From positions 32,001-96,000 of IMG/VR virus record IMGVR_UViG_3300045988_130225: DNA of 64,000 bases; one strand, given 5' to 3'. The notes below the pieces were generated by a model. That model was not told where the DNA came from and searched no databases. It worked only from the letters and a program-made list of their open reading frames with translations. A program made the position numbers and the translations under genes. Below are positions 1,519-48,854 of the stretch, one piece after another (within the stretch, counting starts at the first letter, position 1; each line of letters starts with the position of its first letter). The DNA is from a virus.

Positions 1519-2079
1519 TTATGATAATTTTATCCATTTACTTGTAGTTGGAATTTCATCTTCAACACTTGTCAACATAATTCCATTATCATCATTCTCA
1601 AATGAATTAGTAACAGCCGTTTCCTCACCAATTTCCTCTTTATCCTTAGAATTGGACACATGAGTTACTACAGCCTTGTATAACTCACCGTACTCGTTAG
1701 TAACCCTATCTCCCTCTTTATATTCAACGCCCTCAGTCCATACTGGATAGAGTTCTGGAACTTCTACGGCTTGTTCGTCTGTGAAATTCTGTGCTGATAA
1801 TTTAGCTGTTTTATAAAGGGTCTTATTAATTTGTTGTAAAGTCGCAACTTGCTGTTCTTGTGTTGGAACGTAAGCAATTTCATTATCTTCTAAGTCATAA
1901 AACTTGCCGTTTTTATATTTGCAACCTATAAAACAAGGGTATTGTAAACAGTCTACTGCGATAGCTTCATTGCCGTAAGTACCTCTTGCAATCTGATTAG
2001 CAAGTTCATAATTGTCGCATACAATAATATTCTGTACAGTTTCCTCATGTACAATAGCAAAAACTTGATGTACAATCAT
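1519..2079 (-). CDS. hypothetical protein (tail-fibre region)
   Basis: ORF track, 186 aa, co-oriented in the tail-fibre cluster. No motif recognised. Confidence 0.6.
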   Translation of the reverse strand: MIVHQVFAIVHEETVQNIIVCDNYELANQIARGTYGNEAIAVDCLQYPCFIGCKYKNGKFYDLEDNEIAYVPTQEQQVATLQQINKTLYKTAKLSAQNFTDEQAVEVPELYPVWTEGVEYKEGDRVTNEYGELYKAVVTHVSNSKDKEEIGEETAVTNSFENDDNGIMLTSVEDEIPTTSKWIKLS

Positions 2080-2104
2080 ATCATTTCTATCCTTTCATTC
2101 TATA

Positions 2105-2350
2105 TTAATAAGCGAAAATACTATTCACTGTTAAAGTGCCAGTTTGTTGGGCTTGTGGATTAGTGGTATAAAAAGTTGTACCAGTTAATACTTGATTTAC
2201 ATTGGCGTTACCAGTTAATTCAAGAGTTCCAATTTGTTCATCATCAGAACCTAAACCAAGAAAGATATAACCTTTCATAACTTCTGATTTGGTTGCAGTC
2301 AATTCAGAAGTATCAACGCCACCAGATATAAAATTATTAATTATAGCCAT
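2105..2350 (-). CDS. short paralog of the N-terminal domain of the glycine-rich tail fibre
   Basis: 81 aa. Aligns by eye with residues 1-80 of ORF 2366..3703 (shared KGY.F.G..SDD.Q.GTLELTGNA...G.TFY...TGT). Confidence 0.6.
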   Translation of the reverse strand: MAIINNFISGGVDTSELTATKSEVMKGYIFLGLGSDDEQIGTLELTGNANVNQVLTGTTFYTTNPQAQQTGTLTVNSIFAY

Positions 2351-2365
2351 ATGATACTCCTTTCT

Positions 2366-3703
2366 TTATTTGAAACGGATAAGGATAATTCCAGAACCAC
2401 CAGTACCACCGTCCCTACCACTATAAGCATAGCCACCACCGCCACCACCTGCTCCACCACCAGTATTAGCAGAACCATTGCCGCCCGCACTAGCAAAAAT
2501 GTAATCTGGTTCACTAGAAGAACCTCCACTTCTATAGGTACCATTACCACCATGACCGCCACCTATAGAACCACCAGAGCCACCCCAGTTACCCGGTGTT
2601 AAAGCACCTAATCCTTGTCCACCAGAACCACCACCGCCAGAATAAACAGTACCAGAACTTTCACCAAATGGGCGAGTTGTTGTTCCTTGACCTAATCCTT
2701 GACTATTTGTGACACCAGGACTATTACCACCATTGCCACCATTACTACCGCCATTATTTCCATAAGTATATCCATACGCTGAACCACCTACTCCACCGCC
2801 ACTACCGCCACAACTAGCACGATAATATGGTGAAGTAGTTTCACCGTCACCGCCATATCCACCAGAAGCAGTACATAATGTAGTTCCGCTTCTTGTTACA
2901 GAAGTAGTGCCACCAGTACCCCCATTAGCGCCGCCACCGCCACCAATAGAGCATACTAAAGTTTGTCCAGAAGATACACTAACATTAGAAGCAGTTTTAG
3001 TGTAGCCACCACCGCCACCACCGCCACCATAAGTTGAATTTCTATCTCGACTTTCTCCATGCCCACCACCGCCACCACCACCAACACAAAATATATCAAC
3101 TTGACTATATCCACTTGGTACAGTTACATTTGTACTACTTGTAATCGTCTGTGTATATGTACTACCACTTACAATATTACCTTGTATTGGTGTTCCTATC
3201 AATTCCCCATTACTTGTCACACAATAACTATACACACTTATGTAATACCTAGTTCCAAGATTAGGAAACCCCAAAGTAACACTACTTCTACCACCACTTG
3301 TAGTATTATTTCCAGTACCTTTATAAATCTGAGTACCACCAGTCCCAGGATTTCCACTTGTGCTATATTTAACATATACACCACTATAAGGTCTACCAGT
3401 AGTTTGTATAGGGTTAGACCAAGTAACAGTAATATTTCTACCACTAGAAACAGCTAAGTTTAAATTACTTACATTACCAACTTCCATTGTGCCAGTAACC
3501 TTAATTTTAGCGTCTGTATTATAAAACGTAGCACCTTTGATAACATGACTTTCTATAGCGTTTCCAGTCAGTTCCAATGTGCCAGTTTGTATATCGTCAC
3601 TATCTTTTCCTACGAATGTATATCCTTTTAATACATTATTTGGTTCAGCAGTTGCAATATCAGAACTACCACCACCAGTAGGAAATCTATTCATAATTGA
3701 CAT
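2366..3703 (-). CDS. glycine-rich tail fibre protein
   Basis: 445 aa. N-terminal domain shared with 2105..2350, an FN3-like middle (NITVTWSNP...YVKYS), and a long G-rich C-terminus (GGGGGGG runs) ending GGSGIILIRFK, as in phage glycine-rich fibre domains. Confidence 0.7.
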   Translation of the reverse strand: MSIMNRFPTGGGSSDIATAEPNNVLKGYTFVGKDSDDIQTGTLELTGNAIESHVIKGATFYNTDAKIKVTGTMEVGNVSNLNLAVSSGRNITVTWSNPIQTTGRPYSGVYVKYSTSGNPGTGGTQIYKGTGNNTTSGGRSSVTLGFPNLGTRYYISVYSYCVTSNGELIGTPIQGNIVSGSTYTQTITSSTNVTVPSGYSQVDIFCVGGGGGGGHGESRDRNSTYGGGGGGGGYTKTASNVSVSSGQTLVCSIGGGGGANGGTGGTTSVTRSGTTLCTASGGYGGDGETTSPYYRASCGGSGGGVGGSAYGYTYGNNGGSNGGNGGNSPGVTNSQGLGQGTTTRPFGESSGTVYSGGGGSGGQGLGALTPGNWGGSGGSIGGGHGGNGTYRSGGSSSEPDYIFASAGGNGSANTGGGAGGGGGGYAYSGRDGGTGGSGIILIRFK

Positions 3704-3730
3704 AAAATCACCTCTTTTTGTTAATAAAAC

Positions 3731-4096
3731 TTATCCAATAATCAGCACTTGGATGGGTAAATCTTCCGTTGGCTTATTCTTATAAGCTGTAAGAGTAATC
3801 TGATTTTCTGCTTGTGCTGTACACTGAATGATACATTTCATGGATAGTTTAATTTGGTCTAAGGTTGCATTTGAAGCTAAACCAACCTCAATATTATTCT
3901 CAGCCGTAACACCATTTACTGTTAAAGTTAATGTATATGGTGCATTATCACCTTGCCAATCTGCACTAGGAGCATTTACTTGCACACTTACAGATTTAAA
4001 AGCACCATTTTCTACATTTTTTATTTTAGTCTGAGGATATAATTGGTCATATCCAGTATCAGTTTTTACATTCATTTCTATGTTATAACTTGCCAT
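3731..4096 (-). CDS. hypothetical tail-fibre-associated protein
   Basis: ORF track 3731..4147. Start moved to MASYNIEM (ATG 4096, GGTGA RBS) to avoid overlap with the upstream gene. Confidence 0.55.
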   Translation of the reverse strand: MASYNIEMNVKTDTGYDQLYPQTKIKNVENGAFKSVSVQVNAPSADWQGDNAPYTLTLTVNGVTAENNIEVGLASNATLDQIKLSMKCIIQCTAQAENQITLTAYKNKPTEDLPIQVLIIG

Positions 4097-4116
4097 ATTT
4101 TCACCAACTTTCTTTA

Positions 4117-4806
4117 TTAAACTTCGATAGATAAAATTTTCCACCATTGACCACCAACTTCTAATTGTTCGTCAGTTGGTTCTGTTTCAGATACAATAAC
4201 TCTTGCTTTTGGAAACTTCATAAATACCTGCCATGTGCTAGGTGTGGTATCTGGTTGAACATTTGTATTCGCTTTTAAAGCAATATACATTACATTTTCA
4301 TAAGTAACAACGTCATTAATAGCATAATTTACTGTTTTATCCCAAACATCTTTTAACTGAACGTCAATACTTGTCGCACCAACCTCACCTTTTAAGCCAA
4401 TCAACACCCAGTATTCCATATCAGTAGGCAGATTTCCAGTTGATTGTTTTAAACACATATAAACTTGTTTGTCATAAACAACAAAGTTATACATTTCATA
4501 TTGTATATCAGCTTGATATTCTTTCTTATTTATGTAATTATTAAGCATTGTCTGAAATAATTGTTCATCTTCTGCAAGTTTAACCTCTACTGCATTGTAA
4601 TATAAATTCTGTAAATATTCAAGAGCCGTATGAATCATATTGAAACATATTGGCATAACCGTTTCAGAATCAATGTCATCATTGTTCATAATTAACGCTA
4701 ATGCTTGACTAAAATAACCCTCTCTAAAATATTGAGAAAACTGTTGCATTAAGTTTCTATTACTTAATGATAAGTCTTGCCAACGTCTGACTTCAAAACT
4801 TGCCAT
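4117..4806 (-). CDS. tail protein with C-terminal aromatic carbohydrate-binding-like repeat
   Basis: 229 aa. The C-terminus WDKTVNYAINDVVTYENVMYIALKANTNVQPDTTPSTW resembles the CBM5/12-type W..Y..GD.V.Y.G..Y...W pattern. Confidence 0.5.
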   Translation of the reverse strand: MASFEVRRWQDLSLSNRNLMQQFSQYFREGYFSQALALIMNNDDIDSETVMPICFNMIHTALEYLQNLYYNAVEVKLAEDEQLFQTMLNNYINKKEYQADIQYEMYNFVVYDKQVYMCLKQSTGNLPTDMEYWVLIGLKGEVGATSIDVQLKDVWDKTVNYAINDVVTYENVMYIALKANTNVQPDTTPSTWQVFMKFPKARVIVSETEPTDEQLEVGGQWWKILSIEV

Positions 4807-4820
4807 ATTTTTTTCCTTTC

Positions 4821-5552
4821 TTAGTTCACAATTCTAAACCATAAATCACCAGTTTCTTGTTGACTTGGCGTTCCCCCTTGTACTGGAATTTCTCTAGGTC
4901 TAACAGAACCAATATTAACCCAGTATTGCGAACCCTCAAAAGGTGCTTGGTTATTATTAGCTTCAATACAAGCCCACACATAGTTACCGTATGTTACTAC
5001 GTTCTGTGTGGTGTAATGTACTGTACTATCCCATTCTCCTAAGAAAGACAATCCCTCACCAGAATCACCTTTTTCACCACGAATAGAAAGCACTCGCCAA
5101 TAAGTTGTATTTGTGGGATCTGTTCCCAAAGGTGGATTAGTAACAGCAATATACACATAATTTACACCGTTATAGGTGTATGTTACAAAGTTATTCTTAG
5201 AATAGGTTATAGTAGGGTTATATATTCCCTTATAGCCAAATAAATTGATGATATTCTGCCATTTAATTTGCTTGCCCTCTACATAAGGTTGCACATCAGT
5301 TTTATAAAAATTTTCCAACGCTTCACAAGTATTGATAATCGTATTTAATTTTTGAGCATTGATAATCTTTTGATTACCGTTTGGAATTTGTGCAAATATA
5401 TTTTGTGCGGTTTCATAATCATTAGACTGAATAGCTGTCTGATATTGCTGAATTAATTGTGCGTCAGAAGCCGTAATATCCAAAAAAGTTGTAAATGTTT
5501 GTACTTGATTAGGAAAAGTCGTACTCGGAAATTGAGGGTAACGTTCACTCAT
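4821..5552 (-). CDS. tail protein with two carbohydrate-binding-like repeats
   Basis: 243 aa. Two copies of the Y..N.VTY.....Y.A......P......W pattern. The C-terminal half is paralogous to 4117..4806. Confidence 0.5.
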   Translation of the reverse strand: MSERYPQFPSTTFPNQVQTFTTFLDITASDAQLIQQYQTAIQSNDYETAQNIFAQIPNGNQKIINAQKLNTIINTCEALENFYKTDVQPYVEGKQIKWQNIINLFGYKGIYNPTITYSKNNFVTYTYNGVNYVYIAVTNPPLGTDPTNTTYWRVLSIRGEKGDSGEGLSFLGEWDSTVHYTTQNVVTYGNYVWACIEANNNQAPFEGSQYWVNIGSVRPREIPVQGGTPSQQETGDLWFRIVN

Positions 5553-27919: not shown

Positions 27920-28095
27920 ATCAACTCACCGTTACTGAAAACTTATAAAAAGTTATAAACTTTTATGTTTCATTCCTACTTCAACGAGTATGCTTTCATA
28001 ATTATTTCTAATATACTACTCACAAGTTCTTGCACTCTCCATAGGCGTAAATTCCGAACTAACGTATTCGTACATATTTATATCAACCTGAAATG
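27907..28095 (-). ncRNA. putative omega RNA (scaffold plus guide) of TnpB-1
   Basis: ORF-free 3' flank of tnpB up to and just past the inferred right end. Called by analogy with TnpB systems and not folded rigorously. Confidence 0.35.
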
Positions 28096-29410
28096 CTATG
28101 ATACAGATTGATTTAAAACATTTTCTCCATATCTTTTAAGATTTAAAGATGCTTGATAATCTCTGTCAATCATATTACCGCAATCACATTTATAAACACG
28201 GTCTGATAATTTTAAATCTTTTTTAATTTTGCCACAACAACTGCATAATTTAGAACTAGGAAAAAACCTATCAGCAACTATTACAGTAATATTATTCCAT
28301 TTACTTTTATATTTAATTTGCCGTCTAAACTCATAAAATCCTTGCTGTTGTATAGCTTTGGATAAATGTTTATTTTTCATCATACCTTTTACATTCAAAT
28401 CTTCAATACAAATAAAACTTGGTTCTCGCTTTATAATTTCAGAAGTTATTTGATGTAAATAATTCTTGCGAATATTTGTTAGTTTATGATTTACTTTTAA
28501 AAGTTTCTTTTCGCTTTTTACAATGTTACTTGTTTTACAATAACTATCTCCTTTCTTGTTTTTTAAATATTCCCTAGAAACAGAACGCTGTAACCTACGT
28601 TTTTTCTTCTCTAACTGTTTTATCTTTTGTGATTTATTTATATTTTGATATTTATAATTATTAGAACAAATAGCTAAATCTTTAATTCCTAAATCAATAC
28701 CAATTCCTTCTTTATTAGGAATATTTACACTATCTGGATATTCTACACCAACTGTAATCCACCAATTTAATCCGTCAAATTTAATTCTAGGATTATAATA
28801 TTTACAATCTGTCGGTATACGATTACGTTCAGCAAGTCGTATCCAGTTTAATTTCTGCTTATTTTTCTTTTTAGATTTTGTAAATCCTTCAACTTTTACA
28901 TGAGTTTCAGAAAATTGAATTTTTACACTATCTTGGTAAAAGGAGGGTGTAGATTTTTTTCTGTTTTTAAATTTAGGAAAGTTTGTCAAGCCTTTAAAAA
29001 ATTTCTTATAAGCATCACAAGCATCTTTAATAGCTTGTTTTGTGACATTGTTAGAAATATCATTTAACCAGACATATTTCTGTGTATGTTTCATTTTTGT
29101 AAATTCTTTTCGCAAATCCGTATCAGATAGAAATTTACCACCATTTTTATAATTTTCTTGTTCTCTTGCTAATGCCCAGTTATAAGCAAATCGAGCAGTG
29201 TAAGCATACTGAAGCAATTTTGTCTTTTGTTTATTGTTTGGAATTAACATTACTCGAATCGTTTTTAACACATTGTTCGCCACCTTCATCTATAAGTTCT
29301 TTTACAAATTTCTTTGCTTTGTCTTATAAAACTTATAAAAATCAACATTCAATTATAACTTTTTATAAGTTTATAATCATTGTTATTCACCTCTTTCAAC
29401 CAGTGTTACT
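27927..29410 (-). mobile_element. tnpA-less IS200/IS605-type TnpB element 1
   Basis: The left flank AGTAACAGTG (rc of 29411-29420) is repeated as the element end AGTAACGGTG (rc of 27927-27936). A 13-bp perfect subterminal hairpin lies at 29329-29341/29360-29372. The element carries one tnpB ORF. Confidence 0.65.
28096..29289 (-). CDS. tnpB: TnpB RNA-guided nuclease
   Basis: 397 aa. RuvC triad contexts GIDLGIKDL, ICIEDLNVKGM and IDRDYQASLNL, plus zinc finger CSCCGK...CDCGN. Confidence 0.85.
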   Translation of the reverse strand: MKVANNVLKTIRVMLIPNNKQKTKLLQYAYTARFAYNWALAREQENYKNGGKFLSDTDLRKEFTKMKHTQKYVWLNDISNNVTKQAIKDACDAYKKFFKGLTNFPKFKNRKKSTPSFYQDSVKIQFSETHVKVEGFTKSKKKNKQKLNWIRLAERNRIPTDCKYYNPRIKFDGLNWWITVGVEYPDSVNIPNKEGIGIDLGIKDLAICSNNYKYQNINKSQKIKQLEKKKRRLQRSVSREYLKNKKGDSYCKTSNIVKSEKKLLKVNHKLTNIRKNYLHQITSEIIKREPSFICIEDLNVKGMMKNKHLSKAIQQQGFYEFRRQIKYKSKWNNITVIVADRFFPSSKLCSCCGKIKKDLKLSDRVYKCDCGNMIDRDYQASLNLKRYGENVLNQSVS

Positions 29411-31114: not shown

Positions 31115-32995
31115 TTAGAACACAAGTTGGTCTAACTCATCTAAATTGGTATCTCTTTGTTCATCTACAGCATACTTATCACCTATTAAGGTTGCAATAT
31201 GGTTTCCGTAACTCAAAGCTACAATTTTATCCTTTGTCGCACTATTTCTGTTAGGTTCTGATAATTTCAAAATACCGTTATTCCATGTTTGAGTTAAACT
31301 AATAGCTTCTGACATCATTAATGCAGTTTGAACATATGGCAACTTAATATTAACTTTTTCCTCAGAACTCATAGTAAGATAATTTACATCTTCTTCAAGT
31401 TCTGTTTCAATCGTTAATTCATCTACCAAAAATTCAATCATTTCATTATCTAGGGCTTTCTTTAAATCAAGCCACATTAAACTATTTCGTTCACTTGTAC
31501 CAACAATAGGTATGATACATGGTATAGCTTCTGCATCAACCGTTTTGCCTTTAAGTTCTTGAATTTTAGCGTCTGGAACTATCTGTAAAGCAGATTCATA
31601 ACAAACTGTAAATCCATGTGGATTCCAATTACTTCGTGATGGGTGTTCAAAAGGTTTAGATAACTCTGTATAATAAAGAGTACCACCGCTTCTTTCGTCC
31701 ATTACGATATAATCTGCTTGGTAATCCCAAAAGAACTCTCTAATCTTTTGTTGAAATCCCTCACTATCACTAGCAGGGTGCGTTCCAATATATTCTACTT
31801 TTCGTCTTGTCTTACCATCTTTCATAATGACAGACATACAACCAATAACACTATTATCGTTATCGTTTGTATTGCTGTTTACAAAAGCATAATCAATGAA
31901 AAGTAAACGTTTTTCAAATTCACCTTTAGGTCTGTTACCTAAATCAGTTGACATAAATATATCCATAGGCGTAGGTGGTTTATAGGCTTTTTTTATCACT
32001 TGATTCTTTCTGAAATCTTCAAGTAAGAAGAAAGCACCCTCTGTTTCACCATACATTTCATTCAAATCTTCTGTTACAAAGTCAATATCTGAATCAAATT
32101 CTTTATCATGCCAGTAATCAGCCCATGTTTTAAGGTTAAATAAAATTGCAAGAAAAATATTAGAAGCAAAGAAATTATATGTATGGTCTTTTCGTATCAT
32201 ACTTTGTTGAACAACAAGTTTAAATTCTTGCCAGAAACTTTCACTTCTAAATCTTGCAGATGTAATACTTATAGTTTTACATTGCTCAACCCAACGTGGC
32301 AATGTTTTTCCATTACTATCTTTATATTCGTCCAACAACGAAAATTTAGATTGTCTTGGGTGAGCCATTTTAGAGAATACAGAATCTATTAAACTTTTCT
32401 TCAAAAGTCTACGTTCTTCATATATAAGCATAGTTGCCCTAGAACCTCTACTGCTGTTCAGACAAGGTAAAACCGTTATCATACTGCCATTTATTTTGCT
32501 CAAATCTACTTCTACACAATCATTATTATACCTAAAAACTATATCGCCATTCTCATAATAATATTGTAAAACTGGTGAAAGTTTCTTGCAAAGTTCATCT
32601 TCTATTTTCTTTTTTACTAGCTTTGTAGCCTGTGGAATAGTAGAAGATGTAATAACAACTTCTGCAAACGGGTATAAACATGAGTGTATGACAGCGAGAA
32701 GTCCTGCAATCATTGACTTAGAAGCACCTCTCGAACAAATCGCATACCAATATTGGCTAATTCCTGCTAAATAAACCATAACATGCTGAAACGGATATAA
32801 TTTAATCTTTAATCTTCTTTCAGCATATATATTCCAATTACGTCTATAAAATGTTGTCCATTCCTTAATATTTTTCTTTCTTTGTTCCCACGGTAATCTT
32901 CTGTCAGTCTTTTTCTTTTCTTCTTGTTTTTTCTTTCTTTTTTCCACAAGACTAATAATATCTATATCTTTGTTTTCCTCTAACATAGACATCAC
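31115..32995 (-). CDS. terL: terminase large subunit
   Basis: 626 aa. Walker A-like CSRGASKS, Walker B-like TMLIYEE, and a C-terminal Asp-rich nuclease half (LFIDYAFVNSN...). The best RBS (AGGTGA) favours ATG 32986. Confidence 0.8.
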   Translation of the reverse strand: MMSMLEENKDIDIISLVEKRKKKQEEKKKTDRRLPWEQRKKNIKEWTTFYRRNWNIYAERRLKIKLYPFQHVMVYLAGISQYWYAICSRGASKSMIAGLLAVIHSCLYPFAEVVITSSTIPQATKLVKKKIEDELCKKLSPVLQYYYENGDIVFRYNNDCVEVDLSKINGSMITVLPCLNSSRGSRATMLIYEERRLLKKSLIDSVFSKMAHPRQSKFSLLDEYKDSNGKTLPRWVEQCKTISITSARFRSESFWQEFKLVVQQSMIRKDHTYNFFASNIFLAILFNLKTWADYWHDKEFDSDIDFVTEDLNEMYGETEGAFFLLEDFRKNQVIKKAYKPPTPMDIFMSTDLGNRPKGEFEKRLLFIDYAFVNSNTNDNDNSVIGCMSVIMKDGKTRRKVEYIGTHPASDSEGFQQKIREFFWDYQADYIVMDERSGGTLYYTELSKPFEHPSRSNWNPHGFTVCYESALQIVPDAKIQELKGKTVDAEAIPCIIPIVGTSERNSLMWLDLKKALDNEMIEFLVDELTIETELEEDVNYLTMSSEEKVNIKLPYVQTALMMSEAISLTQTWNNGILKLSEPNRNSATKDKIVALSYGNHIATLIGDKYAVDEQRDTNLDELDQLVF

Positions 32996-33031
32996 CTAAT
33001 CTTTCTTTCGTGGAATTAAAGGATACTCCTT

Positions 33032-33144
33032 TGTGCCTGCTCTGAACCTCCCACGACTAAAGTCGCAGGGTTCTCGGTCAATAACTCTATTGAGTTAAGT
33101 ATCACCAAGCTAACCCCGTAGTTCCTACGGTTTTTATATATCAT
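33032..33144 (-). ncRNA. putative omega RNA of TnpB-2
   Basis: The 3' flank of tnpB has hairpins CCGTAG/CTACGG, AACTC/GAGTT and CGACT/AGTCG. The guide would be GGAGGTTCAGAGCAGGCACA, just past the right end. Confidence 0.4.
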
Positions 33145-34257
33145 TTAAACATTTAAAATTCTTAAACCCTCATTCAAAATATTAATAGAAGCATTATCAT
33201 CTCTATTCAATTTTGAACCGCAGTTAGAACAAATCCAGTATCTAATCTCAACAGGCTTTTTACCACCATTAACACCACAACAATGACAAATTTGTGAAGA
33301 AGGAAAATATCTATTAATTACAGATAATATTTTTCCATACCAAATAGATTTATAAGTCAACATTCTACGAAATTCAGACCAAGAAACATCATTCACATGT
33401 TTATTACGAACACTGGAATCTGTTTCCCTCATAGACTGTACATCTAAATCTTCAATACAAATAATATCATATTGTTTAACAATATTAGTAGTCAATTTCT
33501 GTAAAAAGTCTTTACGTTGATTAGATATATGTTTTTGTAAATTTGCGACTTTAATTCTTGCTTTATTCCAATTAGAACCACCGATTGCTTTTCTCGATAA
33601 TTCTCTTTGTAACTTAGCAAGTTTCTTTTCTGACTTTTCATAAAATCTAGGATTTTTAATCTTAATACCGTCAGATAAGATTGCAAAATCTACAATCCCT
33701 AAATCTATTCCAACATTTTTATTTGTTTTTGGATATTGTGGAAATTCTATATCAGTACAGCATAATGAACAATAGTAATGTCCGTTTGGTTCTTGTGATA
33801 TAGTAGCGTTAAGTATTCTTCCTTGCGGAATTTGCTTATCACGAACTTTTACAAAACCTAATTTTGGAAGCCTGATATGCTTACTTTCAAATCTTATATT
33901 ATTAGTAGTACAACTTGTAGTATAAGATTGATGTCTATTTTTCTTAGATTTAAAATTAGGAAAACCAGTTTGCTTTTTAAAAAGTTTTTGATATGCATTA
34001 TCTAAATTTTTCAAAGTTTTCTGTAAAGCATCTTTATCTGGTTCTTTAAGCCATTCATTTTCTTTCTTTAACTGAGTAAGCATTTTACTTGTGTCGTAAT
34101 AGTTTAAAGTTTTCTTATTTTCTTTATACTCAGTTATTCTTTTGTCTAAGAAATAATTATAAACATATCTACAGCAACCAAAAGTTTTCTGTATTAATTC
34201 TTGCTGTTTCTTATTCGGATAAATTCTATACTTAAAAGCCTTTTCCAACAATATCAC
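33145..34257 (-). CDS. tnpB: TnpB RNA-guided nuclease
   Basis: 370 aa. VGIDLGIVDF, ICIEDLDVQSM and LNRDDNASINI, plus CHCCG...CSNCG zinc finger. Confidence 0.85.
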   Translation of the reverse strand: MILLEKAFKYRIYPNKKQQELIQKTFGCCRYVYNYFLDKRITEYKENKKTLNYYDTSKMLTQLKKENEWLKEPDKDALQKTLKNLDNAYQKLFKKQTGFPNFKSKKNRHQSYTTSCTTNNIRFESKHIRLPKLGFVKVRDKQIPQGRILNATISQEPNGHYYCSLCCTDIEFPQYPKTNKNVGIDLGIVDFAILSDGIKIKNPRFYEKSEKKLAKLQRELSRKAIGGSNWNKARIKVANLQKHISNQRKDFLQKLTTNIVKQYDIICIEDLDVQSMRETDSSVRNKHVNDVSWSEFRRMLTYKSIWYGKILSVINRYFPSSQICHCCGVNGGKKPVEIRYWICSNCGSKLNRDDNASINILNEGLRILNV

Positions 34258-34344
34258 TTCCTTTCATAAATTAACTTATAACATATTTATATATAAATGT
34301 CAAGTTAAATTATGAAAAGAATTACTTTAGTTTAAATAATATAT

Positions 34345-34778
34345 AAAAACCGTAAGTTACTTTAGTTACGTTTTGAGATTGTCGTTCACATAGGTTCGCT
34401 ACTCCTATGCAGTTCTCCAATGAACTTCTTGTACTTTCATACAAGCACAGACTATATCTTATCCCTCACCATTACGTGTTAGGGTCTACCCACTTCCACA
34501 CGCTTGTGTGTACTTCCCTCAAGAGGAATAGTCGTTGAAGTTTTCCTTTCGGACTTACCTGCTAATTGCCTATTTTTCAGTGTTTAGGATTTAACCATGC
34601 ACCATTCATTCAATTTTTTCTACTTTCGTCACATTCACGCTTATACCCTTTAAGGTATTACGTTGTAGTTTGAATGACTTTAAGGTTTCCTAGCAATTCA
34701 AGTAGTATTGGATGCTAAAAGCATCGCTACGTGCAAGTTTCCCTACACGCTAACTATTTCGTAAAACGTTCGCTTACT
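34345..34778 (-). ncRNA. group I intron ribozyme core
   Basis: The minus-strand RNA contains GGUAGACCCUAACACG...GGGAUAAGAUAUAGUCU (34490-34449). AUAAGAUAUAGUC equals the J8/7-P7 string of the Tetrahymena intron as I recall it. It is followed by P9-like hairpins at 34428-34445 and 34389-34409. The region is ORF-free and GC-richer. Confidence 0.6.
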
Positions 34779-34803
34779 CACGACTAAAGTTATGAATATG
34801 CGT

Positions 34804-35658
34804 TCACGATTTAATCAAATTCTTTACAGCAGAAACTACATACTTAAACCAGTCAGCTTCAATATTACAGAAATCCTTATATTTTTCCAAATCTTCACAT
34901 TCACAAGGTTCAGTGTTTTCGATTTCCCAAATCTGATGTTCAAGCATTTGTTCAGTTAAAGTCTTTTCTTTCTTCTGAGTAAAGTTATCAAGTTTTAAAG
35001 TTTTCATTAATTTTAAAACCATATCTTGTTCTTCTTTACCAGAATTACCCATGTCCACTTCTTTTTTATATCTTAATTCAGCAATACAAAGTTTACGATA
35101 CAAACTCTCTTGTGCAGGTGTCAACTTAATATCATCAGTGTAGAATCCCCATCTATACTCAAGATAGGCATAATCTTCATCTGATTGCTCTCCCCAATCC
35201 AGAATTAAATCTTGTATATTTAATTTACGTTGTGTTTCTTCGTCATTGGAAGTCATAGAACTTCTATCTACATCTGTTTGTCCAAAACAATCCCATTTAT
35301 CTGATTTTTTCTTTAAAGCTAAAAAAGTTACATAATACTGTCCCCAGTAGTTATATGTACTAGACAAAGTACCTTCTTCTTTTTCTTTTTCAACTTTTTC
35401 CATCAGACCATCATATACTTTTTGTATAAACGGTATTCCTATCTCAGCACATGTTGACCATAAAGCTAATTTAATATCTCCATATTTACTGTAATAGTTT
35501 TGATAAATCGTTTTACAACAAGTGGTACAATAAGGAACTACTTTATTTGCATGGTTTGGATTGTCAGATTTATAAAATTTCTTAATATCATAAGGTCTGT
35601 TGCAACGAATACAAAATGATTCTGTTATGGGTCTTTCTTTTCTTATAATGGTTGCCAT
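34804..35658 (-). CDS. Zn-finger protein, possible small terminase
   Basis: ORF track 34804..35694. Start is at MATIIRK (GAGGGA RBS). Motif CIRCNRP...CTTCC. Lies upstream of terL. Confidence 0.3.
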   Translation of the reverse strand: MATIIRKERPITESFCIRCNRPYDIKKFYKSDNPNHANKVVPYCTTCCKTIYQNYYSKYGDIKLALWSTCAEIGIPFIQKVYDGLMEKVEKEKEEGTLSSTYNYWGQYYVTFLALKKKSDKWDCFGQTDVDRSSMTSNDEETQRKLNIQDLILDWGEQSDEDYAYLEYRWGFYTDDIKLTPAQESLYRKLCIAELRYKKEVDMGNSGKEEQDMVLKLMKTLKLDNFTQKKEKTLTEQMLEHQIWEIENTEPCECEDLEKYKDFCNIEADWFKYVVSAVKNLIKS

Positions 35659-35700
35659 AACATTCCCTCGTTTCCAACAAAAAAAGAAAGACAATATTAA

Positions 35701-47719: not shown

Positions 47720-47790
47720 AGGGCATTAGCCAAGCGGAAAGGCAAAACACTTTGACTGTTTCATGCGTAGGTCCGAATCCTACATGCCCT
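47720..47790 (+). tRNA. tRNA-Gln (anticodon UUG)
   Basis: Hand-folded cloverleaf: acceptor AGGGCAT/ATGCCCT, D stem GCC/GGC, anticodon stem AAACA/TGTTT with loop CTTTGAC, T stem GTAGG/CCTAC with loop TCCGAAT. CCA is not encoded. Confidence 0.85.
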
Positions 47791-47821
47791 GTTTATAAAA
47801 ATAAATGTTTGGTGATTAAAA

Positions 47822-48675: not shown

Positions 48676-48748
48676 GGAACAATATTTCAACTGGTTAGAA
48701 AGTTCGGCTCATAACCGAAAAGTTATAGGTTCGAGTCCTATTTGTTCC
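48676..48748 (+). tRNA. tRNA-Met/Ile2 type (anticodon CAU), elongator-like
   Basis: Acceptor GGAACAA/TTGTTCC, D stem TTTC/GAAA, anticodon stem TTCGG/CCGAA with loop CTCATAA, T stem ATAGG/CCTAT with loop TTCGAGT. Confidence 0.85.
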
Positions 48749-48854
48749 ATTAGAAGAATAATCAATATTGCACACCATCACCTTATAATTATAATGACGT
48801 TCCCCCTAAAATAACGTTTATTACTGCAATATTAATTGTTCTTCACAATACAAA

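Follow-up and report, generated by a model that had tools for sequence, protein, structure and literature searches.

The 64,000 nt analysed here (the window) are positions 32,001 to 96,000 of the IMG/VR virus record IMGVR_UViG_3300045988_130225. On the minus strand, next to the gene of the large terminase subunit (terL), the window carries a 1772-nt IStron in which a group I intron is fused with a tnpB gene and the guide RNA of TnpB (omega-RNA). The initial annotation had described an IStron-like composite of group I ribozyme, TnpB, and omega-RNA at this place. Its composite nature is borne out by a match to the Rfam group I intron model RF00028 (70.6 bits), covariation from helix P1 to P9.1, a TnpB resembling that of ISDra2, and a conserved guide-RNA scaffold. 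The element is a well-delimited member of the known IStron class and no new kind of element. The parts of the locus, with the evidence for each in brackets, are as follows.

34814..35694, minus strand: exon 1 of a gene at the small-terminase position (open reading frame (ORF) list; 66% identical to and colinear with PMBT24 protein WDQ45553.1)
34814..34818, minus strand: TTGAT, which is the IS605 target, the transposon-adjacent motif (TAM) of TnpB, and the last 5 exon bases (empty sites in L079 and PMBT24; group A rule, PMC4227781)
33042..34813, minus strand: the whole IStron (filled/empty comparison with L079; no target duplication)
32996..33041, minus strand: exon 2, the last 14 codons (AGTKEYPLIPRKKD) and the stop codon TAG at 32998..32996 (in-frame join; aligns with the PMBT24 C-terminus)
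31115..32986, minus strand: terL, uninterrupted in the window, starting about 10 nt after exon 2 (ORF list; homologous to the PMBT24 large terminase)

Borders of the element and the interrupted gene

A pattern search for the predicted exon junction led to an empty site much closer than that of PMBT24, on IMG/VR contig 3300045988_133818 (locus L079). Flank identity to the window is 91-96%, and the empty allele reads ...GCTGTAAAGAATTTGAT/AGCAGGTACAAAGGAGTATCC... (here and below a slash between sequences marks the junction). The junction itself, ...AATTTGAT/AGCAGG..., equals the predicted exon junction at every base, and the entire 1772 nt are absent in a single step. Because this empty site displays the native junction, the element extends from T34813 at the left end to G33042 at the right end (TAAATCG...GGTTCAG), and not over 33032..34790 as first proposed. 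It sits directly 3' of TTGAT and terminates in TTCAG, without a target duplication (TTGAT/element/AGCAGG in the window vs TTGAT/AGCAGG when empty). The 3' terminus, ...GGAGGTTCAG/, has the TCAG ending of group A IStrons. In the Enterocloster phage PMBT24, the flanks are collinear with the window, the 1.8 kb has no counterpart, and the 302-aa gene stops 11 nt before terL. The comparison with phages lacking the insertion, which the initial annotation had suggested, thus provides the empty sites of L079 and PMBT24. An intron ending in ...TTCAGA with a PMBT24-style junction (ATT/GCA) was considered and rejected, as the native L079 junction GAT/AGC gives a canonical omega-G.

The element is not intergenic and interrupts the gene upstream of terL at its 3' end, since the join restores a reading frame colinear with the PMBT24 homologue. 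The earlier placement between a terS-like gene and terL is therefore replaced by one inside the coding sequence of the upstream gene. Without splicing, the exon 1 ORF stops early, with ...KNLIKS followed by a stop codon at 34804. The join of U34814 to A33041 stays in frame, ...AAT TTG AT/A GCA GGC... (ATT or ATA, isoleucine either way), and the joined ORF gains the 14 C-terminal codons AGTKEYPLIPRKKD and a stop, aligning through the final residue of the PMBT24 protein (...KNLIAGTKEYPLIPKKRD-stop); 12 of the 14 codons are identical to PMBT24. The interrupted gene has no family match in Pfam or PHROGs, so the label "terS-like" reflects its position only. The terL gene has PHROG matches of unknown function only.

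The sister phage that carries the empty site (contig IMGVR_UViG_3300045988_133818) has an IStron of its own in terL. This copy (L007 2422..4229, 1808 nt) is 90% identical to that of the window and lies after about codon 300. Its removal at TTGAT/...TTCAG/ restores a continuous sister TerL, 91% identical to the window TerL. The presence of an IStron in the essential terL of an assembled phage genome is indirect evidence, drawn from sequence, that this lineage probably splices. An exact-pattern search of the window for the insertion site of the sister phage gave no match, and the site was located by protein-level comparison instead. At this position the terL of the window has TTGAC, not TTGAT, and its downstream target has 3 differences over 16 positions.

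The group I ribozyme and the end hairpins

The region upstream of tnpB (34258..34813, 556 nt) has no ORF of at least 50 aa on the minus strand, and its G+C content is 0.36-0.39 vs 0.24-0.31 in the surroundings, which agrees with the ORF-free, GC-richer stretch of the initial annotation. The RNA features of this region, and the hairpins at the two ends, are given below.

34387..34816, minus strand: group I ribozyme, P1 to P9.1, with P7.1 and P7.2 present as in subgroup IA (RF00028, covariation)
34752..34756, minus strand: internal guide sequence (IGS) UAGUU, which pairs with exon GAU and intron UA to form P1
34450..34462, minus strand: J8/7 and the P7 3' strand (AUAAGAUAUAGUC; Rfam alignment)
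34445..34428, minus strand: P9 hairpin (covariation)
34411..34387, minus strand: P9.1 hairpin (covariation)
34777..34796, minus strand: left-end (LE) subterminal hairpin (TTCATAAC-TTTA-GTCGTGAG), the tip of the P1 extension, holding repeat copy 1 (relatives, covariation, fold)
33069..33050, minus strand: right-end (RE) hairpin, holding repeat copy 2 (covariation, fold)

RF00028 matches 34428..34754 with 70.6 bits and E 2e-17, above the gathering score of 50, over model positions 1-253. The string GGUAGACCCUAACACGUAAUGGUGAGGGAUAAGAUAUAGUCU, earlier read as the J8/7-P7 string of the Tetrahymena group I intron, is present, and RF00028 aligns AAGAUAUAGUC as J8/7 and the P7 3' strand. The match was obtained on a 2-kb slice only; two scans of the whole 64-kb window (gathering and E-value modes) missed the intron through their speed filters. 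Because the same model scores 70.6 bits on the slice, these misses are a filter artefact and not an absence. The Rfam scan of the 8-kb locus L001 likewise missed its group I intron, and long windows may hide other introns in the same way.

For the comparison of RNA structures, 73 related loci were gathered from IMG/VR by TnpB protein, and 20 intron-bearing ones were aligned. RNAalifold, unguided, recovered the LE hairpin, P2, P4, P5, P5a-c, P6, P7, P7.1, P7.2, P9, and P9.1. P1, P1a, P2.1, P3 (pseudoknotted with P7), and P8 were added by us. From P1 to P9.1, 92.3% of 2101 alignment cells are standard pairs, and 67 of the 108 pairs show compensatory changes, whereas sliding the 3' partners by 1-3 columns as a control leaves only 34-41% of cells paired. 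The P3/P7 pseudoknot, P8, and P1 are among the covariation-supported helices, as are the two hairpins previously called P9-like, which are P9 and P9.1. The partner of the P7 3' strand is GACUA (34533..34529); P7 is paired in 100% of cells and contains one compensatory pair, UA to CG. P7.1 and P7.2, between P7 and P3', fit the published assignment of IStron introns to subgroup IA2 (PMC4227781; 10.1101/2023.11.20.567912).

The splice sites, which the initial annotation was unable to place, are canonical: the 5' site lies directly 3' of U34814, the last base of TTGAT, and the omega-G is the terminal base 33042. P1 in the relatives consists of exon GAU and intron UA with UAGU(C/U/A), which corresponds to 34756..34752 in the window. 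U34814 forms a U-G wobble with the G of the IGS, a pair that all 20 relatives share. Where the target is TTTAT (L033 and L009), the guide sequence is TAGTA; this compensatory change is linked to the target and in L033 replaces GC by UA. This P1 can form in elements without the LE hairpin as well, and the P1 domain of the window folded alone gives the same P1, P1a, and hairpin (z = -3.6). The first IGS pair in the window is G-U in place of G-C. L009 has a minimal P1 and no hairpin. A different P1, made from exon UGAU/UAAA and the repeat copy UUUAGUCG, was also tried and rejected: it pairs in 91.8% of cells with zero compensatory change, fails in L006 and L033, and is not available in elements without the hairpin. 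At most this pairing is a possible alternative conformer. The RNA has four copies of the pentamer UAGUC, located in the IGS (34752..34756, as UAGUU), the P7 3' strand (34450..34454), the LE hairpin (34782..34786), and the RE hairpin (33055..33059), all on the minus strand. The P7 5' strand GACUA and the splice-site GAU/UA could in principle pair with any of these four copies.

The 12-mer ACTTTAGTCGTG has exactly 2 copies in the window, at 34790..34779 and 33063..33052, where about 0.2 matches are expected by chance. It had been described as a repeat bracketing the unit; the two identical copies do exist, but they lie inside the end hairpins and are not the borders. Copy 1 starts 23 nt inside the left end and copy 2 stops 10 nt short of the right end. 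According to the empty site, the element continues for 23 nt and 10 nt beyond the repeats, which excludes that they are a border or a target duplication. The repeat consists of the loop and 3' arm of two subterminal hairpins of the kind recognised by IS200/IS605 Y1 transposases, which explains a perfect repeat near both ends. In the relatives, the left end reads TTGAT/TAAATCGTGAACGCACA-CTCGTGAC-TTTA-GTCATGAG and the right end CCTGCGAC-TTTA-GTCGTGGG-AGGTTCAG/. Unrelated insertions and Clostridioides difficile IStrons alike keep the 12-nt motif in their two end hairpins. Palindromes at both ends of group A IStrons, the left one in the P1 domain, were described by Tourasse et al. (PMC4227781). 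The hairpin sequence that a cognate Y1 TnpA would match is GACTTTAGTCGTG. The 5' arm of the LE hairpin of the window has two G-to-A changes relative to the relatives, and one A-C mismatch is left.

TnpB, omega-RNA, and related insertions

The remaining part of the element comprises the tnpB gene, the inverted repeat around it, and the predicted guide RNA.

34317..34354, minus strand: left arm of the inverted repeat (38 nt, 82% complementary)
34275..34303, minus strand: candidate internal promoter of tnpB, TTGACA, 17 nt, TGnTATAAG (read from the sequence)
33145..34248, minus strand: tnpB, 367 aa from TTG 34248 (mechanical ORF from GTG 34257, 370 aa; Pfam, structure matches)
33126..33163, minus strand: right arm of the inverted repeat, overlapping the tnpB stop codon and the 5' strand of SL1 (inverted-repeat search, relatives)
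33042..33130, minus strand: omega-RNA scaffold (covariation, single-sequence fold)
33130..33116, minus strand: stem-loop SL1, CCGUAG-GAA-CUACGG (omega-RNA fold)
33109..33073, minus strand: stem-loop SL2 (omega-RNA fold)
33022..33041, minus strand: predicted guide segment, the first exon 2 bases (AGCAGGCACAAAGGAGTATC), directly 3' of the right end

The TnpB protein has the Pfam domains OrfB_IS605, HTH_OrfB, and Cas12f1-like TNB. Its closest natural solved structures are those of ISDra2 TnpB (8BF8, 8EXA, 8H1J; E 5e-99). The catalytic D-E-D triad, reported as intact in the initial annotation, is kept and aligns with D191, E278, and D361 (ISDra2 numbering), and the CxxC...CxxC motif is present. 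The structured 3' tail noticed earlier proves to be a scaffold of three hairpins (SL1, SL2, and the RE hairpin) closed by a short basal helix of GAAC with GUUC. Among 17 relatives, 97.3% of its cells are paired and 13 of 29 pairs are compensatory, and the single-sequence fold is concordant (z = -3.56). A layout of three stem-loops is known for IS605 and IS607 omega-RNAs, and in IStrons an omega-RNA in the tnpB 3' untranslated region overlapping the 3' splice site, together with a TTGAT TAM and an IA2 intron, has been described (10.1101/2023.11.20.567912). The scaffold stops exactly at G33042, which is both the right end and the omega-G. The guide is therefore predicted to be the first exon 2 bases, its length being taken from the ISDra2 and IStron literature, and the cognate target is the empty allele TTGAT + AGCAGGCACAAAGGAG. 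The empty allele of L079, TTGAT + AGCAGGTACAAAGGAG, has one mismatch to this predicted guide, at position 7. There (L079 7379..7410) GGT stands vs GGC in the window, a synonymous change that could be neutral drift or TnpB escape. The omega-RNA region (33007..33136, minus strand) also gives a sub-threshold match to Rfam Ref70 (Enterococcus sRNA 70; 24.9 bits, E 0.16), and the Ref70 family may itself be a TnpB guide RNA.

The duplex of the inverted repeat that encloses tnpB has a free energy of -47.6 kcal/mol vs -19.4 for shuffles. The stem recurs in relatives, and the window clade has a compensatory change (GGTTTTTAT with ATAAAAACC vs GGTTCTTAT with ATAAGAACC). Since its right arm covers the 5' strand of SL1, the inverted-repeat stem and the guide-RNA scaffold are mutually exclusive. 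The promoter-like box upstream of tnpB is conserved in L006, L007, and L009, and in L005, a near-identical copy at the same site, a 7-nt deletion takes out the -35 box. In this AT-rich region, a scan for consensus promoters and terminators did not exceed chance.

Among viral contigs, related elements occupy at least 20 distinct sites; each insertion follows TTGAT, TTTAT, or a close variant, which in the L006 group is TCGAT. The fused intron-tnpB architecture is common to more than 20 independent insertions and C. difficile. The clade of the window (TnpB at least 69% identical) has about 48 IMG/VR loci vs 5 in the species-representative genome set, a difference subject to sampling bias. Mosaic copies are found as well, namely L006, L008, L039, and L042 (all about 2458..4217) and L009. 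Identity to the window is 99% for TnpB and 98.9% for intron nt 109-556 in L006, and about 90% and 96-97%, respectively, in L008, L039, and L042. In these last three and L006, the first 108 nt differ, an AT-only hairpin replaces the LE hairpin, the TAM is TCGAT, and the right end is only 77% identical to the window. Larger IStron variants of 2.08-2.14 kb (L017, L015, L019, L024, L031, L059) contain about 370 extra nt between intron and tnpB, and in L017 (2656..2850) the extra stretch holds an antisense ORF for a 64-aa helix-turn-helix protein.

Elsewhere in the window, a second TnpB element lies at 27973..29289 (minus strand), directly downstream of the portal gene; in L079, 1.29 kb of unrelated filler takes this place. 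The element consists of a 397-aa TnpB ORF (28096..29289) followed by a RAGATH-18 RNA (28045..27973, 70.6 bits), which is the pairing of an IS607-type TnpB with its guide RNA (reRNA) described in PMC11061315. Two tRNA genes, 47720..47791 and 48676..48749 (plus strand), lie in the oppositely oriented half.

Known systems, proposed mechanism, and rival explanations

Clostridioides difficile CdISt1 and CdiIStrons: These elements (Braun 2000 as cited in PMC4227781; Tourasse 2014, PMC4227781; Zedaveinyte et al., 10.1101/2023.11.20.567912) share with the window element the order of group I (IA-type) intron at the 5' side, tnpB, and omega-RNA at the 3' side, TTGAT as target and TAM, and the ...GGAGGTTCAG terminus. 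The hairpin motif GACTTTAGTC(A/G)TG at both ends, the inverted repeat around the ORF, a missing or fragmentary TnpA, and splice sites that equal the transposon ends are also common to both. The intron DNA is about 80% identical to the window over 450 nt, whereas the TnpB is only 57-59% identical. The C. difficile elements reside in a bacterial chromosome, while the window element resides in a virulent-type Enterocloster phage and has no tnpA remnant. Group A IStrons are defined by a T-rich pentanucleotide target (TTGAT, TTTAT, or ATTAT, with no target duplication), the TCAG end, palindromes at both ends, and an inverted repeat around ORF B of IS200/IS605 (PMC4227781). The target, TCAG terminus, end palindromes, and stem-enclosed tnpB are all found in the window element, and TnpA is not. 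CdiIStrons and several group A and B copies also occur without a full TnpA (10.1101/2023.11.20.567912; PMC4227781), and its lack does not speak against membership.

ISDra2 (IS8301) of Deinococcus radiodurans: The domain set, the D-E-D triad, the TTGAT TAM (PMC4227781; 10.1101/2023.11.20.567912), an omega-RNA (reRNA) made from the 3' end of tnpB and the right end, and a guide taken from the flank are alike. In contrast, ISDra2 has no intron and has its own Y1 TnpA.

Group B IStrons: CboIStron and CbISt3/CbISt4 of Clostridium botulinum and its phages c-st and D-1873 also combine intron, TnpB, and omega-RNA and are sometimes phage-borne. Experiments have demonstrated splicing, TnpB cleavage, and the antagonism between the two in no IStron type other than group B (10.1101/2023.11.20.567912; PMC13521648). 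These IS607-type elements differ in their serine-recombinase TnpA, a GG-ending target (TGGG), a CGG terminus, a long AU-rich inverted repeat, and the base preceding the 5' splice site (G, not U), and the window element shares none of these features. The window element has no serine recombinase, its target is TTGAT, and its terminus is TCAG, so it does not belong to group B.

Phage introns with homing endonucleases: The terL introns of the Enterocloster phages CB457P1 and CB473P3 likewise place an intron in a packaging gene together with a nuclease gene expected to target the intron-less allele, and their core is 73-74% identical to that of the window over about 200 nt. Phage introns of this kind differ in the nuclease, a protein-only GIY-YIG or HNH enzyme (in CB457P1 and CB473P3 an I-TevI-type ORF) vs the RNA-guided TnpB with IS605 ends of the window. 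In both phages (L003 and L004, about 1940..5000), terL is annotated as fragments split by intron-like DNA with an I-TevI-type ORF. Such split genes may explain the lack of significant TerL similarity among related phages in the PMBT24 paper (PMC11035940).

Taken together, we hold with high confidence that a phage related to the virulent phage PMBT24 here carries an IS200/IS605-type IStron of the CdISt1 ("group A") family that is intact and non-autonomous and whose RNA is predicted to have two alternative folds. The element is called non-autonomous because no Y1 TnpA is found in the window or in close relatives. By analogy with published IStron and TnpB work, the following sequence of events is proposed. 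The element would have inserted in the IS605 manner 3' of TTGAT, with ends carrying the transposase hairpins, no target duplication, and no tnpA of its own. The IStron would be transcribed along with the packaging genes, and the transcript would have two mutually exclusive fates. In the intron fold, P1 (exon GAU/UA with UAGUU) and the P3-P9.1 core would form, and the inverted-repeat stem would loop out the 1.1-kb tnpB ORF and bring the right end to the core. Guanosine-initiated splicing would then join U34814 to A33041. The spliced RNA, 1772 nt shorter, would read ...AAGAATTTGAT/AGCAGGCACAAAGG and would regain the last 14 codons of the gene upstream of terL. In the guide-RNA fold, the last ~90 nt would form SL1, SL2, and the RE hairpin, TnpB would bind this scaffold, and the exon bases (AGCAGGCACAAAGGAG...) would serve as the guide. 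The TnpB complex would cut IStron-free alleles carrying TTGAT and the target, and recombination would copy the element back (homing, retention). Splicing, omega-RNA processing, and TnpB activity of this element are thus predictions from sequence. A trade-off between splicing and guide-RNA formation, that is, a competition of the two folds, would be expected here because the stem and the scaffold cannot form together.

Several points weigh against this reading. TnpA is absent from the element, from the whole window, and from all close relatives, and is only seen in a clade of 51-53% identity; together with the mismatch in the LE hairpin, this means that DNA transposition may be lost. The antagonism between splicing and guide RNA has been demonstrated only for the IS607-type CboIStron (10.1101/2023.11.20.567912; PMC13521648), and in IS605-type elements it is a hypothesis of the authors (10.1101/2023.11.20.567912). 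No P10 pairing with the 3' exon could be drawn, which fits the variable 3' flanks of the family, and P9.0 (UG with CA) is invariant in the alignment, hence without covariation information. Moreover, just 14 C-terminal residues are at stake, and selection for splicing at this site could be weak.

Some of these points would suit a dead relic, inactive as ribozyme and as nuclease system, in a phage that tolerates a protein ending in ...KNLIKS. The lack of TnpA, the two G-to-A changes in the LE hairpin, the G-U in place of G-C as first IGS pair, and the small cost of an unspliced element, a short C-terminal tail, are in line with it. We nevertheless regard it as unlikely. All core helices, the U-G pair, the omega-G, the G-binding helix P7, and J8/7 are intact, the tnpB ORF is full length with its catalytic residues, and the scaffold is identical or near-identical to that of many relatives. 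The 14 downstream codons, in frame and so well conserved between the window and PMBT24, would be unexpected if their translation had ceased.

Nesting, in which a separate IS605-type tnpB element with borders of its own would have entered an older free-standing phage group I intron, has a very low probability. Related introns with other cargo are known, such as the CB457P1-type terL introns with a GIY-YIG ORF and a 73-74% similar core. Intron-less IS copies with the same ends occur (L013, L028), and L026 and L046 have the same LE hairpin beside tnpB. However, a single filled/empty comparison removes all 1772 nt, the P1 extension contains the LE hairpin, and the right end closes with the omega-G. 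Both sets of borders thus coincide, and the same fused architecture recurs in the independent insertions and in C. difficile. The intron is not nested or degenerate, two options that the initial annotation had considered, and nesting may describe the ancient origin of the class and not this locus. A plain intergenic IS605/TnpB insertion with a chance resemblance to a ribozyme would agree with the whole-window Rfam scans, which listed no intron. These misses are filter artefacts, the 2-kb scan gives 70.6 bits and E 2e-17, covariation is massive, and the site lies inside an ORF, so that the probability left to this explanation is negligible.

A more far-reaching idea, which we put forward tentatively and consider rather doubtful, is that the TnpA-less clade is a phage-adapted lineage in which TnpB and its omega-RNA do the job of an intron homing endonuclease, cutting the intron-less allele of a competitor at co-infection and thereby being copied into it. 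Drive and escape of this kind are compatible with the reciprocal polymorphism of sister phages from one metagenome (empty at the window site, with a 90%-identical IStron in terL), with the synonymous mismatch of the sister phage's cognate target at guide position 7, and with TTGAC in place of TTGAT in the window terL at the sister's insertion site. All three are also compatible with neutral drift. If the idea is true, the spread of TnpA-less copies to at least 20 sites would call for an additional mechanism, for example TnpA in trans or reverse splicing directed by a 3-nt exon match.

For annotation, the gene upstream of terL is a split gene with a 14-codon second exon, and the 1.8-kb "spacer" upstream of terL is a mobile element outside the phage backbone. 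Automatic pipelines would call a truncated ORF at this gene, and default-filter Rfam scans miss such an intron. The locus is a convenient study system, since a virulent-type gut phage here carries an IS605-type IStron for which filled and empty alleles exist in nature, along with many sister insertions. It is suited to ask whether splicing and guide-RNA formation are traded off in IS605 IStrons, and whether TnpB may drive intron homing between competing phages.

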